Part shown: positions 11,715-64,000 of the stretch, in pieces | Position numbering within the stretch: position 1 is the first letter of the stretch | How the letters are laid out: each line of letters starts with the position of its first letter | Origin: an uncultured Candidatus Saccharibacteria bacterium | GTDB lineage: Bacteria > Patescibacteriota > Saccharimonadia > Saccharimonadales > Saccharimonadaceae | Assembly (NCBI GenBank): GCA_964584145.1 | Contig: CAZOYU010000002.1 | Location: 19,956-83,955, forward strand | Length of the DNA: 64,000 bases | Direction: 5' to 3' | Made by a program: the position numbers and the translations under genes | Notes under the pieces: generated by a model | Databases searched by the model: none | Told to the model about the DNA's origin: nothing | The model's input: the letters and a program-made list of their open reading frames with translations, nothing else

Positions 11715-13628
11715 TTAGCGCATCCAATATTTTTTACCGCCAAGAATATCGTAAGTAAATAATTCATAGTCGCGCAGAATTTCTGCTTGTGACAATTCGC
11801 GCCCTTCCAGCCAAGTTGCCGCCAGAATTGGTTCTGCCGAACAAACGTCGTCCACCAGGTAATAGTACGAATCTTTCTGCCAATTCAGCAAATTATACAT
11901 TGTATTTACTAAACAGTTTGGCGTCGTCGTCGGTAAGTAGCTCGTACTAAAATCCGCATCATAATTCGCATAGACAAAATATGGCGTTACCCGCGACAGA
12001 TCTCGTACTTCTTTCACTTCATTGCTGTTCGTATTATCGAATAAGCCCGCCGAATGATCGCCAAAGAACAATACGACCACTTTCTTATCCAATTCTTCCA
12101 GACTATCGATAAATTCACCCAAATATGTGTCCGAATTATGCAAACTCTGATAATAAATTGAGATATCCGAACGCTTATCTTCCGTGATATCTTCGTTTGT
12201 TACCGCAAATTCCGTTTCTTCATAATTGCCCGCATTGTATGGCGTGTGATTTTGCATTGTAATTAGGCCAATCATCTGATTCTCGTCGGAGTTTTTCAGC
12301 ATGTCCAGTGTTTCTTGATATGCTGAGCGATCATTAATGTATTCAGAATTGCCATCATGCTCTTGATGCGTCATTTCATGCTCGTCGATAAATGTATCGA
12401 AACCTTCATTTATCAGTGCAATGTTGCGCTTATACATGCCGCCATTGTAGGGGTGAATTGCCGTCGTCTTATAACCTAATTTTTTGTAAGTCTGCGCAAT
12501 GCTCGGAATTTCGCTCGCTTTCGGGATCAACGCTGTGTATGGTACCGTATTTACCCAATAATTCGTCATGCTTGTGAATGCCTCAAATTCGACATTCGCC
12601 GTGCCGCCACCATAATCCAGCGAATACATATAGCCGCTCGGATATTTGCGCATAATTCGGTGTAGGTTTGGCAAAATATCGCCGCCCGTATGTGGATAAT
12701 AATCTTCAAATTTCAAGCCCTGGAATTCTACGCTCGGATCATAGAATGATTCATTTAAAATCACCACGATGTTTACATCTTCGTCCGCTGCCGAAATGCG
12801 GTTTTTGTTTTCTTTCTCGGCGCGGTCGTCATATTCCGCTTTTAGCTCAGTAATTTTCGCTTCGCTATACTCGTCCGGCTTCGATAATTGCAATTTCTGT
12901 AAGTTATACAAAAAGCCCAGAATAAAGCCATTGTCGTCGTAGTTGCGGTTTTGGTTCCAGGCCGTAAAATGCGTACCTAGGAAAGTGTCTTCGTAGCGGC
13001 TGCCATCATTGTGGCGCACGAAATCCGTTACAAAGAAAAATGATAAGCCCGCTATCGTAATAACCGCTAGTCGCATCACTAAGAAATGCCGTTTCGCAAA
13101 ACTCGGGCTAGGATTTTTATAGCCAAGATATAATTTATTTGCCACTTTGTGATTAAAGAAAATTGTCAGCGCGATAATCAGCGCAATCGCTGCAATCATG
13201 CGCATAATTGATTCAGCCGTTACGAATTTCGTCAGCGAAGATGCTTCGCTCGCCAGCTGAAAATCTTCCGGCAGTAGCGGAAAACCGCGCGAATTATATT
13301 TATTGATATGCGCATAAGTTATGACGGTGACAATGATCCACATCGCGCCCGCTGCTGTGCCAGGTTTTTCGCAAATCCCCCACAGTAGCACTAACATTAG
13401 CCACATCAAGAAGGCATTAAAGAAAAATGGTGCCGGACTACCAATTGCAAAGCTCCAAGTCCGACTAAAATCGTTGATAAAATAGCGATATTCCAGAAAC
13501 CATGTCAAAAAAATCGCCGCTAACGCCAAGAAGATTATTGAATTCAGAAAATACATCTTGCGATTATCTAATCGCCGAAAAAACCGCAACTTCAACTTCA
13601 GTTTCTTCGTTTTGATTTTTTTCATCAT
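11715..13628 (-). CDS. LtaS-family sulfatase-domain membrane protein (phosphoglycerol/alkaline-phosphatase superfamily transferase)
   Basis: 637 aa. About 5 N-terminal TM helices are followed by an extracellular sulfatase-like domain (VVILNESFYDP ... GGTANVEFE ... VVLFFGDHS). Confidence 0.75.
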   Translation of the reverse strand: MMKKIKTKKLKLKLRFFRRLDNRKMYFLNSIIFLALAAIFLTWFLEYRYFINDFSRTWSFAIGSPAPFFFNAFLMWLMLVLLWGICEKPGTAAGAMWIIVTVITYAHINKYNSRGFPLLPEDFQLASEASSLTKFVTAESIMRMIAAIALIIALTIFFNHKVANKLYLGYKNPSPSFAKRHFLVMRLAVITIAGLSFFFVTDFVRHNDGSRYEDTFLGTHFTAWNQNRNYDDNGFILGFLYNLQKLQLSKPDEYSEAKITELKAEYDDRAEKENKNRISAADEDVNIVVILNESFYDPSVEFQGLKFEDYYPHTGGDILPNLHRIMRKYPSGYMYSLDYGGGTANVEFEAFTSMTNYWVNTVPYTALIPKASEIPSIAQTYKKLGYKTTAIHPYNGGMYKRNIALINEGFDTFIDEHEMTHQEHDGNSEYINDRSAYQETLDMLKNSDENQMIGLITMQNHTPYNAGNYEETEFAVTNEDITEDKRSDISIYYQSLHNSDTYLGEFIDSLEELDKKVVVLFFGDHSAGLFDNTNSNEVKEVRDLSRVTPYFVYANYDADFSTSYLPTTTPNCLVNTMYNLLNWQKDSYYYLVDDVCSAEPILAATWLEGRELSQAEILRDYELFTYDILGGKKYWMR

Positions 13629-23255: not shown

Positions 23256-26200
23256 ATGACGAATAACTTTTTAAGAGTGGTTGCGGTGGTCGCAACGATA
23301 ACTATATGCAGTCTTTTTCTGTGGACTGATAATGCTAATGCTGCAAGGACAAGCTGTGATAGTAGTAAAATATTTATCAATACAAGTTTGATTGCAAACT
23401 CGATTACGGACGCGAGCATTCAAGATATTGGCGCACTCGATGGTACCAGAGACTCGTCTATTGTTGGCACGGGCGCATGGGCGTGCGCTGAAACTAGCCG
23501 GGGAATTTTCTTTATTGCCGATAGTGTTGACCATGATGTGAATACCGGTAAATATATTATCAATCTTGATGTGAAAGTTAATCCAGAAAGTACGCGAAAC
23601 ACCGCGATTGCCATGGGCATGATTAACTATAAGCAAGAATCCGTAATCGATCAAAACGTTTATGCTATAAATATAAAATATTGTACCCAGGATTTTGAAT
23701 ATAGCTTCGTCTATGGTAAAGGCTATGATAACGTTGAATGTCCGGACGGGAGAGATGATGCGGGTGGCATAATAAATCAATATGGCTCAATTGTGCAGCG
23801 ACAAGGTGCCAATGATAATGTCTCAAGCGGGGCGTATGCCTATTGGTCGGAGCCTAAATATACATCCTCAACAATAAATGTTGATGGAACCGTTTTGAGT
23901 GCTAAATTAAATAATACTACTTTTAAACACGATAATGTCGTGAGGACTATTAATAATGGCAACACTTACGTAATAAAGTTATGGCAATGGCGCTGTTGGT
24001 CCTATGACATGTATAATTATAATAAATATAATAAAGATGCTTGCGCATCGAACCCGATTCTATTGGCAGTCGATATGAGTTGGAGTACGACTTTTGCCGG
24101 TAAGGTGGATAATATTAACGTCTCGGGCGCGAGCTATAATTCTTCTGACGGTAAATATTATACCGATAATGACGAGATTGATATTAAATATAACTATTAT
24201 CTTGCGAGAAATAATAATGGGCCAGACAAATCAGTGCAGGGGGGGTATACTACATATATATCATCCGGTGATGGCGCAAATGGCAATGTGAAATTATCAA
24301 AAAATTCTGGTTGGGCATGGGTGGCTTCTAGGACGGAGAGTGGACGTTCATTGAGTTATGGCGATAATACAATCTGCGGTAGAATTGGCTATTTTGTTAC
24401 AGTTAGTAGTGAAGGTGGCGGTAAAAATAAAGATTGGACCGAATCGTCAAAGTGTATTACTGTTCATAAATACAGTTGGTATGAATTTGAAGGTCAAGTC
24501 GTTCCATATGTTAATGATGTCTCAAAATCGAGCGGTAGCACCGTCTGGATTGACGGCAATTCTGCGAAGCTCAAGTTTGTACACCAACTTAAACGCACTG
24601 GCAGTGCCCAGACTCGCTACGGTACCAGCAAAAGCTCCAACTTGTCCAGTATTTTTAGTATTCAAAATTGGTATGGTACTTCTTCGTTAACTAACAATAA
24701 TAGTTGGCAGACGCAGAAAACTAGTGGCGATTCTGATTCTACTGTGAATATTGCTAAAAGCGATAGCGGATCTACCTATTGTCAATATCTGAAGTACTAT
24801 AAAACGGTACGCGATGATAGTAAAGATTTTAGAAACCAAGAAGAAAAGAGCGCCTGTGTCACCCTCAAACGTTATAAAACCAATTTTACTGGTAAGACTA
24901 CGGTTACTGTCAATGGCAAGGAATATAGTGATGGTGACACGATTACCGTTGAGAGTTCCGATGGTAAAATACCTGTGACCGTGCCGGTTGTCTTTAAGCA
25001 TACTGTTACGCGCAACTCTGAAAGCACGCCGCCATCCGCGCCAAGCAATAAAAAATCTAGTATCGCGATCTCGACTTCTGGCACTTCTGGCTGTCGTTCT
25101 GGCGATCCTTGCGGAACCAATACTAGTGCCGAGGATACCGACGAGCTCGCTTCTGGCGCCTCCTATACAAAGACACAGTCCATCAATACCAAAGTTTATC
25201 CAGACCAGACTATTAAAATCTGTCAACAAATGACCTACAAGAATCAAATTTGGGGCAGTAGCGAAAGCACTGCAACTGCCGACCAGGTCTGCGTTACGCT
25301 CAAGATGGATAAGGCGCTCTGCTCGGATAATACTCAATTTGGTATTCACGACGGTCAAAACCTCGGCTCGCTCAGTATTAGTAAAAATGTTAATAATAGC
25401 GACAGTAATACCGTCGTCAAATCTGGCGCCAAGAATACTGGCAGTACCGAAATAACAATGTGGGCTAAACCGGGTGACAATATCAGCTTCACGCACGATT
25501 CCTGTGCCGCCGCCGACTTGCCGAACCAGTTCCATAATAATGGCAAGACTACCACCTATAACGTCTCCGCCGGCCGCTCTAGCTCCTCCGGTTCGCTCGA
25601 CGCGACGGGTTATCTTTTTGGCAATAGTATCGGCTCCGAGCCATATACTAGCTCTTCTGCCACTATCGCTACTACCAACGCCAATTCCGGCACTGGACCA
25701 TTCAAGAGTGGCCAATATGCCGCGACTTATAAATCGCCAAGTACTAAATCCGACACCGACTATACTTGTACGACCGACTATTATGGTAATAGTCATCAAT
25801 CGAAAACTAATTATTATCAAATTACTTCTGATGTCGCCAAGACCAGTACGCTCACTAGCGCCCGCTGCAATTCTTACGTGAAAACTATTAATAATTCTAC
25901 GGACTATGCGATTGGCTCCAACGTCGGCACCTCTTTCTCGCAAACGCTTTCTTGGACCGACCTCTGGATTAGCAATGATTCTGTCGACAGTAGTCACAAC
26001 GGCTCTAAGACTGCCAGTATTAAAGGTACCGTTAGCGTGCCATACAATTACTACCTCTATCCGTATGTCGGCAATAATAGCACTAGCACTACTCAGACCG
26101 TCACTCCAGGGGCAAGCCTGAAAGCTAATGTTTACTTACCTGTCATGCAGCGCGAGAATAAGCAAGTTGGCGAAACTTATGCCACGCACACTAAGCCAAC

Positions 26201-61048: not shown

Positions 61049-62083
61049 ATGCAGTTACTTACTTTTTTCGCTGAAACTTGTATGGATACACTGCTTTTTG
61101 GTCAGATTTGTGACGACTGTCAGGGTGGTCCAATCTTGAAACTTGTTCTTATGGCCGTACGGATTCTTACTTACGGCTTTGGTCTGCTTGCTACTATCGG
61201 CATTATTATTGTTGGCGTTAAATATCTGACTGTCCGCGATAATCCTGATCAAGTTGCTCACGCCAAAAAGCGCCTATTCGAAATTGTTATAGGTATTGTT
61301 GTCTACGGCATGATGTATTTGATTATTGGCCTGCTTACGCCGGGAAATATTATGAATATTACTGCCGATACTAGCACTTCGACTTGCAGTAACCCAACTG
61401 TTGCTGAGCCTTCGCCAATTAACGGCGGTCCAGTCGATAGTGGCGTCGATTACGATGGCAATAACACTAGCACATCTGCCATCAGTACGCCTGCTAAAGC
61501 CAGCACCAAAGCTCGGCAATTAGCCATCAATGCTGTTTATGCCGCTTGGCCATATACGAGCGGCGAACATGCCGGCAAATGCCAGAAGCCAAACGGTAGT
61601 TGGGTAACTTGGAATGAAGACAAATGGGGTGGTAACGATAAAAATTGGTGCGGCTATAGTCTTAAGCCGGAAAACAAGGAGCTCTATAAGACTGCTCGCA
61701 AGACGGGCGACTTTACTGCCAAAGACAAAATTTTTAACACTTATGTTCAGGACTGCGTATATTTTATGCAAGCGCTAGTGTACTATACGGGTATAACGAG
61801 TAAACTGAGTGAGTTCCCGACAAATCGCGCAACTAGCCAGTGGAATTATATGAAAGGGTCCAGTAAATGGCAGGAGATCACTAATAATAGCAATACTAAA
61901 AACCTTCAACCGGGCGATATTCTCGTGAACGATAAGCATGTGATGGTTTATGTCGGCGAATATGGCAATGGTTATGGTAATACGGTCGGTGCTTCGCGGG
62001 GGACTTGGGCGGCGCGAATTCATAGTATCTATTATTCGAATAGTTCGGGTAAATTTCACATTTTTAGGTATATTGGCTCATGA
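61049..62083 (+). CDS. T4SS-pilin-like two-TM N-domain fused to a putative NlpC/P60-like (papain-fold) cell-wall hydrolase domain
   Basis: 344 aa. GLLATIGIIIVGVKYLTVRDNPDQVAHAKKRLFEIVIGIVVYGMMYLIIGLL resembles TrbC/VirB2-like small pilins. The C-terminus has candidate Cys (YVQDCVYFMQ) and His (LQPGDILVNDKHVMVYVG) motifs. Confidence 0.55.
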   Translation: MQLLTFFAETCMDTLLFGQICDDCQGGPILKLVLMAVRILTYGFGLLATIGIIIVGVKYLTVRDNPDQVAHAKKRLFEIVIGIVVYGMMYLIIGLLTPGNIMNITADTSTSTCSNPTVAEPSPINGGPVDSGVDYDGNNTSTSAISTPAKASTKARQLAINAVYAAWPYTSGEHAGKCQKPNGSWVTWNEDKWGGNDKNWCGYSLKPENKELYKTARKTGDFTAKDKIFNTYVQDCVYFMQALVYYTGITSKLSEFPTNRATSQWNYMKGSSKWQEITNNSNTKNLQPGDILVNDKHVMVYVGEYGNGYGNTVGASRGTWAARIHSIYYSNSSGKFHIFRYIGS

Positions 62084-62478
62084 GATTTGATGGATTAAAC
62101 ATGCAACAAAAGAAAATCGCACTACTGGTTTTTGGTGGCATTGTCGCGATTTTGGCAATCATTTCAGTCGTTGTTATTACGACTCAGTCTGGCGGCGAGA
62201 TCGGTGGTGGCGGTAGCTATGAAGATGACCGCGCTCATGATGAAGAAGCGGCGGCCTATTATGAACAATACCCAATTATTTCGCACTTGCCGATTATTGG
62301 CGATGGCTACCGTATTGACTATGGTATTTGCGAGCAACGCGATGCGGATTTTTGTATCATGATTTCGTCCAACTCGCCCGAAGCGCGCGAGCGTGCTCAG
62401 GTCGCACTCTACAACGCCGACAGTAGTCAATCTGGTAAATATCCAATTGAATATTATGATTTGGAGGATAGTGAATAA
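62080..62478 (+). CDS. small membrane-anchored hypothetical protein
   Basis: 132 aa. TM helix IALLVFGGIVAILAIISVVVI followed by an acidic ectodomain. Start and stop codons overlap both neighbours. Confidence 0.6.
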   Translation: MRFDGLNMQQKKIALLVFGGIVAILAIISVVVITTQSGGEIGGGGSYEDDRAHDEEAAAYYEQYPIISHLPIIGDGYRIDYGICEQRDADFCIMISSNSPEARERAQVALYNADSSQSGKYPIEYYDLEDSE

Positions 62479-64000
62479 TGCTTGATAAAATTTGCTCGAT
62501 ATTTAAACGGCTTCGGGGGGGGGCAGTTAAATGGCCTGCCGCGCCATATGTATATACGGTATTACTAGTTGTCATTATTTTATCTATTACGTTGATTAGT
62601 CTCGGAATTTATCCTTTCGGTGATCGCGCTTATCTTTGGGCAGACGCAGATCAATACCTCGGCATTGAGCAATATTTCAGCACACTCGCCAGTGGTGATA
62701 ATGATATTTTTTACTCATGGGGCAATGTTCTCGGCGGCAATGCGCTTTCGCAGCTTGCCTACTATTCATTTAGCCCATTTAATCTGCTATTTATTATTTT
62801 TAGTGGCCACCTCATTTTTGCTGCTCATGCCGTAGTCTACCTCAAAATTTTATGCTGTGCACTAGCTTTCTGTTTTTGTCTTAATTATTTCCATCGACAA
62901 AAATATCCATTCATGCAGGCATTATTCTCGGTCAGCTATGCTTTTATGGGCTATCTTGTTTTTTATGGCTGGAACGCCTCTTGGATGGATGGAGTTATCT
63001 TATTGCCATTAATGTTTGTCGGCATTTATCGCATCATTGAAGCCAGACGTAGTTTGCTATATATCATAGCGCTCGCTCTTGCTCTTATCTCTAATTTTTA
63101 CATCGGGTTTATGCTCTGTCTCAGTTCGTTGATCTTTTATTTCGCGCTTATCTTACGTCTTTGTCCAAAATTTTGGACGAGCATTCGCAAAACTATTCGC
63201 GTGTATTTGTCCGCATCTGCGGTGAGCGTTGGCCTTTCGGCCTTTATACTTATTCCAACCTACTTCGCATTGCCCGCCGACCGTAAGCTATCGATTTTTG
63301 ACATGATCTGGCATAGTTCGCTTAATGCTACTCCCGCCGAAATTCTTTCTGGTCTTTTTACTGGGCAAAGCAACACACTCAACGCCAATTCGCCACTCAT
63401 CTATGTTGGCATTCTTCCGCTTGTTCTGAATATTTTATTCTTTGTCCGCCGCCAAAATCCGCTCAAGCATAAATTGCTTGCCGTTGGTCTGCTATTAGCA
63501 TTAGTCTTTAGCTTCATGAATAGCTTCATTAACCAGATTTGGCACGGCTTTAGTAATAATTCTTGGTTTAATTATCGCTATTCTTTTGTACTCAGCTTCA
63601 TTATTTTGCTGATTGCCTACGAGTCCTATCTTCAATTGCGTCGGTGGGCTTGTACTAAACGCGATTGTCTCCTTGTTGTCGCCGTTCTACTTTTGCTGAC
63701 TACTTTCGTTTTGCAAAACGCTAACCATAAAATTTTTCTCGCTACACTCAGCCTCGATCTTATTTTTGCGATTCTTGCGATTGCTTTATTATCCCAGAAA
63801 CGACATTGTGCTGAAATTTTCGGCATAATTTGTGCTGGCGGTATTGTCTTTTCGCTTTTAGTTAACAACTATCTCTATCTTCGTGCGCAGAATTTTCAAT
63901 CCGTCTCTGCCTATGATGCTAGTAGCGCTATCGTGGCCGATGCTAAACAGGTGATTAATGATGACTCTTTCTATCGTATGGATAAAAATTGGACGCACGG
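62478..64000 (+). CDS. YfhO-family polytopic membrane glycosyltransferase (3'-truncated by the window end)
   Basis: The frame opened by the ATG at 62478 (TAATG overlap with the upstream gene) stays open to position 64000. It is absent from the ORF track because there is no stop in the window. GIYPFGDRAYLWADADQYLGIEQYFS...FYSWGNVLGGNALSQLAYYSFSPFN is YfhO-like. Confidence 0.8.
   Translation, partial: MLDKICSIFKRLRGGAVKWPAAPYVYTVLLVVIILSITLISLGIYPFGDRAYLWADADQYLGIEQYFSTLASGDNDIFYSWGNVLGGNALSQLAYYSFSPFNLLFIIFSGHLIFAAHAVVYLKILCCALAFCFCLNYFHRQKYPFMQALFSVSYAFMGYLVFYGWNASWMDGVILLPLMFVGIYRIIEARRSLLYIIALALALISNFYIGFMLCLSSLIFYFALILRLCPKFWTSIRKTIRVYLSASAVSVGLSAFILIPTYFALPADRKLSIFDMIWHSSLNATPAEILSGLFTGQSNTLNANSPLIYVGILPLVLNILFFVRRQNPLKHKLLAVGLLLALVFSFMNSFINQIWHGFSNNSWFNYRYSFVLSFIILLIAYESYLQLRRWACTKRDCLLVVAVLLLLTTFVLQNANHKIFLATLSLDLIFAILAIALLSQKRHCAEIFGIICAGGIVFSLLVNNYLYLRAQNFQSVSAYDASSAIVADAKQVINDDSFYRMDKNWTH
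62515..62523 (+). repeat. G9 homopolymeric tract in codons 13-16 of the YfhO-like gene
   Basis: cttcGGGGGGGGGcag, counted directly across the line break (6 + 3 G). Confidence 0.95.

Follow-up and report, generated by a model that had tools for sequence, protein, structure and literature searches.

The DNA analyzed here is a 64,000-nucleotide (nt) stretch (the window) of contig CAZOYU010000002.1, positions 19,956 to 83,955 of the forward strand, from an uncultured Candidatus Saccharibacteria bacterium, whose NrdD is as much as 90% identical to proteins carrying the name Candidatus Saccharibacteria. Close to its 3' end begins yfhO, an open reading frame (ORF) for a predicted surface glycosyltransferase, and 37 nt into this ORF lies an uninterrupted run of nine G's (G9), which reads CGG GGG GGG GCA and occupies codons 13 to 16 (R13 G14 G15 A16). 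The region around the start reads GGAGGAT AGTGAATA ATG CTT GAT AAA ATT TGC TCG ATA TTT AAA CGG CTT CGG GGG GGG GCA GTT. An earlier note on this DNA had proposed that the gene is of the YfhO family, that the run is in frame (ON) in the window and that the loss or gain of a single G truncates the protein before its first transmembrane (TM) helix, making the run a candidate phase-variable switch. The sequence and simple frame arithmetic bore out the last two of these points. The frame is open with G6, G9 and G12 only; all other lengths lead to an early stop, at codon 17-18 with G7 or G10 and at codon 30-31 with G8 or G11, and every such stop precedes the first TM helix (TM1, residues 22-44). The tract thus has the makings of a contingency locus, being uninterrupted, long enough to slip (about 7-8 or more for G/C) and within a gene, and a one-unit change results, in silico, in a frameshift to an early stop with no rescuing in-frame start ahead of TM1. 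The features at the locus are collected in Table 1.

Table 1. Features of the yfhO locus, in window coordinates
Feature	Position	Strand	Basis or remark
ORF of 344 amino acids with a pilin-like N-terminus of the type IV secretion system (T4SS) kind	61049..62083	+	PF18895 E 1.5e-5, just under cut-off; ATGA overlap with the next ORF at 62080-62083
Upstream membrane-anchored ORF of 132 amino acids	62080..62478	+	TAA overlaps the yfhO ATG (TAATG, 62476-62480); no family match
Shine-Dalgarno (SD)-like GGAGGA	62463..62468	+	9 nt 5' of ATG 62478
YfhO-family GT-C glycosyltransferase gene, 5' part (507/836 codons)	62478..64000	+	PF09586; gene runs on to genome C2:84943
G9 homopolymer, proposed slippage site	62515..62523	+	Sequence; frame arithmetic; G8/G9 in related contigs; contig ends at tract
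TAA encountered with G7, G10, G13	62528..62530	+	Frame arithmetic
First TM helix, residues 22-44	62541..62609	+	Hydropathy; AlphaFold2 (AF2) helix 22-42
TAG encountered with G5, G8, G11	62566..62568	+	Frame arithmetic
TTG codon 39, start chosen by the gene caller on the G8 contig	62592..62594	+	Gives a 798-amino-acid product

The start codon from which these frames are counted (ATG 62478-62480) appears well supported, as it follows the SD-like GGAGGA, overlaps the stop codon of the preceding gene in TAATG and opens an N-terminus, MLDKI, that is kept in an ortholog of 78% amino acid identity described below. Residues 1-23 are basic (5 K/R versus 1 D/E), and residues 1-20 have a predicted local distance difference test score (pLDDT) of 46, compared with 82 for the whole AF2 model, which places the tract in a predicted basic, disordered cytoplasmic tail upstream of TM1. 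Because the tract lies in a disordered segment ahead of TM1, this tail would be expected to tolerate one Gly more or less, and any frameshift would remove the whole membrane protein. A 72-amino-acid ORF that crosses the tract on the minus strand (62357-62575) was rejected as a gene.

The family assignment made in the earlier note was likewise confirmed. The part of the gene within the window matches PF09586 with an E value of 1e-92 (312 bits versus a cut-off of 28.5), and in a hidden Markov model search with the whole genome the complete gene, of 836 amino acids, matches profile positions 2-835 (E 2.4e-139, 463 bits). Hydropathy and the AF2 model place about 13 TM segments between residues 22 and 470, followed by a beta-rich domain (500-805) and one more TM segment at the C-terminus. 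A sequence search of the PDB found no solved relative; the best fold matches of the AF2 model in the PDB are all GT-C enzymes, namely AftD, EmbC, PglB, AglB and ArnT (E values 1e-8 to 1e-3; TM-scores low, at 0.3-0.48). Within the outer loop that comes first (YPFGD...DADQY), P46, F47, G48, W54, D56 and Q59 are invariant in 22 homologs, and D58 is conserved in at least 90%. The product is thus a member of the YfhO family with GT-C architecture. Its best NCBIfam matches are PgfM2 and PgfM1, and its scores against them (233 and 228 bits) do not reach the equivalog cut-offs of 1500 and 1400. The target given in the earlier note, teichoic acid or a surface polymer, had been read from the family name.

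We read the length of the tract from assembled contigs of related samples (ENA megahit assemblies and Logan). The exact 836-amino-acid protein occurs on 11 contigs, and all eight tract-spanning loci that were read have G9 (seven more places were collapsed as similar). These G9 sequences come from at least seven samples, namely the ENA megahit assemblies ERZ27279227, -232, -233 and -234 and the Logan runs SRR11880811, -812 and -818; overall, at least nine contigs with 100% identical flanks have G9, and these represent several samples and two different assemblers. In ERZ27279230, a 679-kb contig aligns to the genome over 8.4 kb with no mismatches and one gap, and that gap is the tract, which is at G8 and therefore out of frame. 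As expected for a contingency locus, then, the run differs in length (G8 versus G9) between near-identical genomes whose flanks are identical.

An assembly from a further sample points in the same direction. In Logan SRR11880817, a 25.6-kb contig ends in CTTC followed by G9, and a 14.7-kb contig begins with G9 followed by CAGTT; the other three Logan runs assemble straight across the tract. A break of this kind in a k-mer graph is what would be expected if the reads carried more than one tract length, and it is indirect evidence for a fork of the G9/G10 type. The strain in ERZ27279230 and SRR11880817 is the same (100% identity over 5142 bp elsewhere), so a single strain shows G8, G9 and, through the assembly-graph break, probably G10. 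DNA pattern scans for the context of the tract returned nothing in genome contigs or in metagenome contigs of the Joint Genome Institute (JGI).

Other homopolymers of this genome also vary. Its second G9 is intergenic (C8:38165-38173), between an SBP_bac_5 gene, whose stop codon ends 8 nt upstream, and a tRNA-Leu gene about 100 nt downstream, and it is found as G5, G6, G8 or G9 among strains that are 97.7-99.8% identical. A C8A7 run between the convergent genes hisS and adk (C11:27993-28007) reads C9A9 in ENA ERZ27279216, where the 2.1 kb compared contain a single further mismatch. Because these other runs change length between strains as well, G/C runs appear to slip in nature in this species. 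Mismatch repair, whose weakness or absence is typical of organisms with contingency loci and not obligatory for them, is not apparent here: neither a MutS_V (PF00488) nor a MutL (PF01119) domain was found in the genome (796 kb, 21 contigs, 46.6% G+C, 97.7% complete), and the same profiles were positive in 11 of 14 control reference genomes. Jaffe et al. have reported the absence of MutS/MutL across the phylum (PMC8406219). Lack of mismatch repair provides a mechanistic reason for instability of the tract.

We found one close ortholog lineage of the gene, present in GCA_963651685.1 and SRR13434646, with 78% amino acid and 76% nucleotide identity. Codons 9-15 of this ortholog are identical to those of the window (TTT AAA CGG CTT CGG GGG GGG), and its tract, CGG GGG GGG G, is uninterrupted. 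Gene-wide, conservation between the two is 48% at 4-fold degenerate sites and 54% for codons of identical residues. That the tract was kept where one silent change would defuse it is suggestive of maintenance, though with a single lineage not decisive. The earlier note had named an invariant tract length and orthologs without a homopolymer as grounds for abandoning its proposal; public assemblies contain G8 as well as G9, and the ortholog has an uninterrupted G9 at the same codons.

Beyond this lineage the gene is rare among relatives of the organism. No close ortholog was present in 58 genomes of the genus, 400 of the family or 400 of the order (GTDB representatives), and yfhO homologs were found in 1 of the 58 other species of the genus (distant, 27% identity), 4 of the 400 family genomes and 1 of the 400 order genomes. 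Once the two Saccharibacteria are set aside, the closest relatives are 45-55% identical YfhO proteins encoded by gut and rumen Clostridia, Lachnospiraceae among them; one of these clostridial genes adjoins a gene for a small acid-soluble spore protein (SASP). Across 84 homolog loci, mostly from Clostridia, we found no G/C run of 7 or more and no A/T run of 9 or more, except at a saccharibacterial locus in genome G344. The simplest reading of these comparisons is that yfhO was acquired from Clostridia and, because the clostridial relatives lack the tract, that the tract arose afterwards.

Runs of this length are found elsewhere in related Saccharibacteria. A G/C run of 9 or more occurs in 18 of 59 genomes of the genus, and several of these runs lie at gene starts, including G9 runs that precede or closely follow the signal peptide of a secreted protein; G/C runs of 9-12 are thereby found in the promoters or at the 5' ends of envelope genes in these relatives. 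In one genome (G453, C11:121826-124834), a C9 run (positions 1501-1509 of this locus) occupies codons 4-7 of an Acyl_transf_3 gene, for a membrane O-acyltransferase, that is next to PS_pyruv_trans and Polysacc_synt genes. Another member of the genus, with a genome of 0.9 Mb (G452), has about 18 G/C runs of 9-12, most of them either 16-115 nt ahead of an ORF of 460-550 amino acids or inside its first 60-200 nt; some are framed TTGACT...G10...TATCTT, like promoter spacers. In the exceptional G344 locus (C8:72080-76597), from another genus of the family, an unrelated YfhO-like gene of 962 amino acids follows a pair of ABC-exporter genes, and a G9 run (reverse strand, 1364-1372 of this locus) stands 23 nt 5' of its ATG; G8 would there fuse a 34-amino-acid upstream ORF in frame. 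Two further candidates were discarded. A truncated call of 289 amino acids, considered as a second ON/OFF example, reflects a different choice of start, and a short gene call is no evidence by itself. In G450 (C59:3731-6475), the gene for a C5 cytosine DNA methylase contains a G10 run and is split in two frames, but the break comes some 40 codons downstream of the G's.

We also compared the number of runs in the genome with chance. Under a model of independent and identically distributed (i.i.d.) bases, about two G/C runs of exactly 9 are expected in 796 kb, and two were seen. When synonymous codons were resampled, the ORFs were expected to contain 0.53 runs of 9 or more, and the probability of at least one was 0.41. 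The tract is composed of rare codons: CGG makes up 11.2% of Arg and GGG 10.9% of Gly codons, with a product of 0.0013 for the R-G-G peptide. Shorter runs are scarce in ORFs, where G/C runs of 6, 7 and 8 were seen 14, 2 and 0 times and 48.6, 8.2 and 2.2 were expected, a depletion of 3.5-4 fold. Of 13 G/C runs of 7 or more, 10 fall outside ORFs (about 10% of the genome), and the yfhO tract is the sole run of 8 or more within an ORF of this genome. One of the only three in-ORF runs of 7 or more is a G7 at window positions 24239-24245, about 980 nt into a giant ORF of 1638 amino acids.

Turning to the proteins with which YfhO might act, we found that the genome encodes a PgfS/GtrB-like glycosyltransferase of family 2 (GT2) on C13 (full-length alignment, E 4e-61) with two C-terminal hydrophobic helices. 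Its best NCBIfam match is PgfS, at 207 bits versus a cut-off of 500. A GtrA_DPMS_TM protein is encoded on C16 (E 1e-21). Neither gene is linked to yfhO, and we infer the pairing. Within the window, on the minus strand at about 11715-13628, lies a gene for an LtaS-like protein of 637 amino acids, with N-terminal TM helices and a sulfatase-type domain (E 7e-38; the LtaS model itself matches at E 2e-10, below cut-off). This LtaS-like architecture hints at a polymer resembling lipoteichoic acid (LTA) in this Saccharibacterium; no TagF-type gene was found in the genome. Because GT2, GtrA-family and LtaS-like proteins are encoded elsewhere in the genome, a three-component scheme of extracytoplasmic glycosylation, as in Bacillus subtilis and Listeria, is plausible by analogy. 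A Pgf-type protein acceptor is just as conceivable. A Cna_B-repeat surface protein adjoins yfhO in the genome of the 78% ortholog, and no Cna_B protein was found in the genome studied here.

The 132-amino-acid gene precedes yfhO in all related contigs, including that of the 78% ortholog. A promoter scan found no convincing promoter directly 5' of yfhO, and the 344-amino-acid ORF, the 132-amino-acid ORF and yfhO probably form one transcript, with the 344-amino-acid gene first and with translational coupling. Past the window end, a mobile element lies between yfhO and prfA in some samples (the site corresponds to the end of C2, 85013, and the start of C15 in the window's own genome). Its cargo comprises a large serine recombinase of 595 amino acids, a restriction enzyme of the RE_NgoFVII_C type and small helix-turn-helix (HTH) genes. 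In ERZ27279230, yfhO and prfA are adjacent, and the window's own assembly breaks at the point of the mobile element.

Taken together, these data support the interpretation offered in the earlier note, and we consider it fairly probable that a real, naturally length-variable poly-G tract gates a predicted surface glycosyltransferase in this organism. In the mechanism that we envisage for this gut Saccharibacterium, G9 would be a hypermutable slipped-strand site, with yfhO ON at G9 (and also at G6 and G12) and OFF at other lengths, and replication slippage would alter the tract at a high rate and reversibly. In ON cells, the PgfS/GtrB-like GT2 would make a polyprenyl-phosphate donor, the GtrA-like protein would handle it, and YfhO would move its sugar onto an extracytoplasmic acceptor, perhaps a polymer resembling LTA or else a surface protein. 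OFF cells would lack this decoration and so might present an altered view to phages, to the bacterial host of the epibiont and to the animal immune system. The tract would have arisen after transfer of the gene from Clostridia and would have been kept by selection for switchability.

Several observations weigh against this proposal. By itself, the tract exceeds chance only weakly, and the case is carried by the comparative data and not by tract statistics. Conservation of the tract was seen in a single ortholog lineage, with a p value of about 0.03-0.1 from the conservation of synonymous sites. Tract lengths come from assembled contigs, which do not give the fractions of alleles within a population, and just one contig is unambiguously OFF, which mutation-selection balance would explain as readily as adaptive switching. 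The G8 strain also differs from the window's genome elsewhere (34 mismatches in 5.6 kb), so that G8 and G9 may be a fixed difference between strains and not ongoing switching. Intergenic runs vary too, and variability alone is no proof of a selected switch. As for the comparable runs in other genomes, the G9 of the YfhO-like gene in G344 was invariant in the three assemblies shown, and the C9 of the Acyl_transf_3 gene in G453 in the two shown. Finally, turning YfhO off while the GT2 is active could be costly, as overexpression of csbB without yfhO causes defects in B. subtilis (PMC12826051).

The most serious alternative is that slippage at the tract is real and has no adaptive role, the run being an accident in a recently acquired accessory gene and the G8 allele a loss of function on the way to a pseudogene. 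The rarity of OFF alleles (one clear case among about 11 contigs) fits this account, as does the dispensability of yfhO in the clade, where 57 of the 58 other species in the genus lack it and so few genomes of the family and order have it; selection is not needed to explain the variation, since intergenic G/C runs vary at least as much, and the codon-usage null gives a probability of about 0.4 that the ORFs contain at least one G/C run of 9 or more. What argues against it is that an uninterrupted tract of rare codons has survived in an ortholog whose synonymous sites are near saturation and in which any of three silent changes would remove it, and that the OFF allele carries no other lesion across 8.4 kb. 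Moreover, the other ORFs have been purged of runs of 8 or more, so selection against such runs is effective in this genome and yet has spared this one. On this evidence we regard the non-adaptive account as unlikely. Still less probable, in our judgment, is an assembly or sequencing artefact, in which the tract would always be G9 and the G8 contig and the broken Logan contigs would reflect homopolymer read errors at high depth. Long G runs do raise the rate of indel errors in short reads, and the anomalous sample has the longest contig and so is probably the deepest, where error k-mers pass abundance filters. However, megahit retains whichever path has the better coverage, and the major allele of that sample should therefore be G8; two different assemblers arrived at G9 in at least seven further samples from this series; the assemblers also agree on G8 for a second G run of the strain; and differences of up to four bases between strains, as in the intergenic tract (G5 to G9), are not the signature of such errors.

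One could also suppose that the tract varies without gating expression, the frame being restored by a downstream start (TTG-39 or another) or by transcriptional or ribosomal slippage. The gene caller did accept a TTG start on the G8 contig, the G9 of G344 lies 23 nt before the called ATG and thus outside the coding frame, and slippage during transcription of long homopolymers has been described, chiefly for A/T runs. Against this, we rejected TTG-39 as a functional start or isoform, because it lies inside TM1, has no purine-rich SD sequence and is CTG in the ortholog; there is no other in-frame ATG, GTG or TTG between the tract and TM1; a product without TM1 would, judging from GT-C topology, have its YPFGD...DADQY loop on the wrong side of the membrane; and ATG 62478 has a strong SD sequence, stop-start coupling and a conserved N-terminus. 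This last explanation therefore seems very improbable to us.

A length-variable tract that gates the glycosyltransferase would have close counterparts in pathogens. The loci of Campylobacter jejuni (cgtA, wlaN), Neisseria (lgtA/C/G) and Haemophilus influenzae share with it an early-coding G/C tract of about 8-12 in a glycan transferase gene, a one-base frameshift to an early stop and lengths that differ between near-identical genomes, and C. jejuni, as here, lacks MutS/MutL mismatch repair. C. jejuni has about 20-30 coding tracts, and this genome has one. The present case differs in its setting, a Saccharibacteria epibiont of the Candidate Phyla Radiation (CPR) with a monoderm-type envelope, and in its enzyme, a polytopic GT-C that would use a lipid-linked donor outside the membrane, whereas the enzymes of those pathogens are cytoplasmic GT-A or GT-B transferases acting on lipooligosaccharide (LOS) or capsule. 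With the LTA glycosylation systems CsbB/GtcA/YfhO of B. subtilis and GtlA/GtcA/GtlB of Listeria monocytogenes (PMC5836110, PMC7389260, PMC8035078), the genome shares a YfhO-family GT-C, a GtrB/CsbB-type GT2 that ends in two TM helices, a protein of the GtrA family and one resembling LtaS, but the three genes are unlinked here and have low identity to characterized members. None of these three-component systems has been reported to be phase-variable. The best NCBIfam matches of both YfhO and the GT2 are to components of the Pgf protein O-glycosylation system of Streptococcus mutans (PgfS, PgfM1, PgfE, PgfM2), at scores far below the equivalog cut-offs. In other monoderm-type bacteria poor in mismatch repair, reversible inactivation by indels in short homopolymers in the absence of canonical MutS/MutL also occurs at the ESX-1/glpK tracts of Mycobacterium tuberculosis (PMC11898584), in Gardnerella (PMC11287997) and in the poly-A tracts of Mycoplasma vlp genes; these cases concern other genes and lineages, none of them YfhO or GT-C. 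The literature that could be searched contained no paper linking YfhO with phase variability, or CPR bacteria or Saccharibacteria with homopolymer contingency loci, and queries with the accessions of the samples returned nothing. The mechanism itself is classical; new are the lineage and the family of enzymes in which it would operate.

The G9 of G344, the C9 of G453 and the roughly 18 runs of G452 relate to a broader possibility, which we put forward tentatively, as one that may well not hold. Saccharibacteria, free of mismatch repair as a phylum, might use poly-G/C tracts as a general "phasome" of the envelope; a GT-C captured from gut Clostridia would then have gained a tract de novo in its disordered tail after transfer, so that the obligate epibiont could stochastically vary a surface glycan and with it phage susceptibility, host attachment or immune visibility. 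In practical terms, a frameshifted allele of such a gene is mis-annotated as an N-terminally truncated gene, as on the G8 contig, and the tract can break assemblies. For the biology of these organisms the consequences could be wider. Saccharibacteria live attached to other bacteria, their surface decides which partners are bound and which phages bind to them, and hardly anything is known of how they vary it. If the switch is real, it would give an organism with a 0.8-Mb genome a heritable and reversible heterogeneity of its surface at no regulatory cost, and it would link the loss of MutS/MutL throughout the phylum with an adaptive use.

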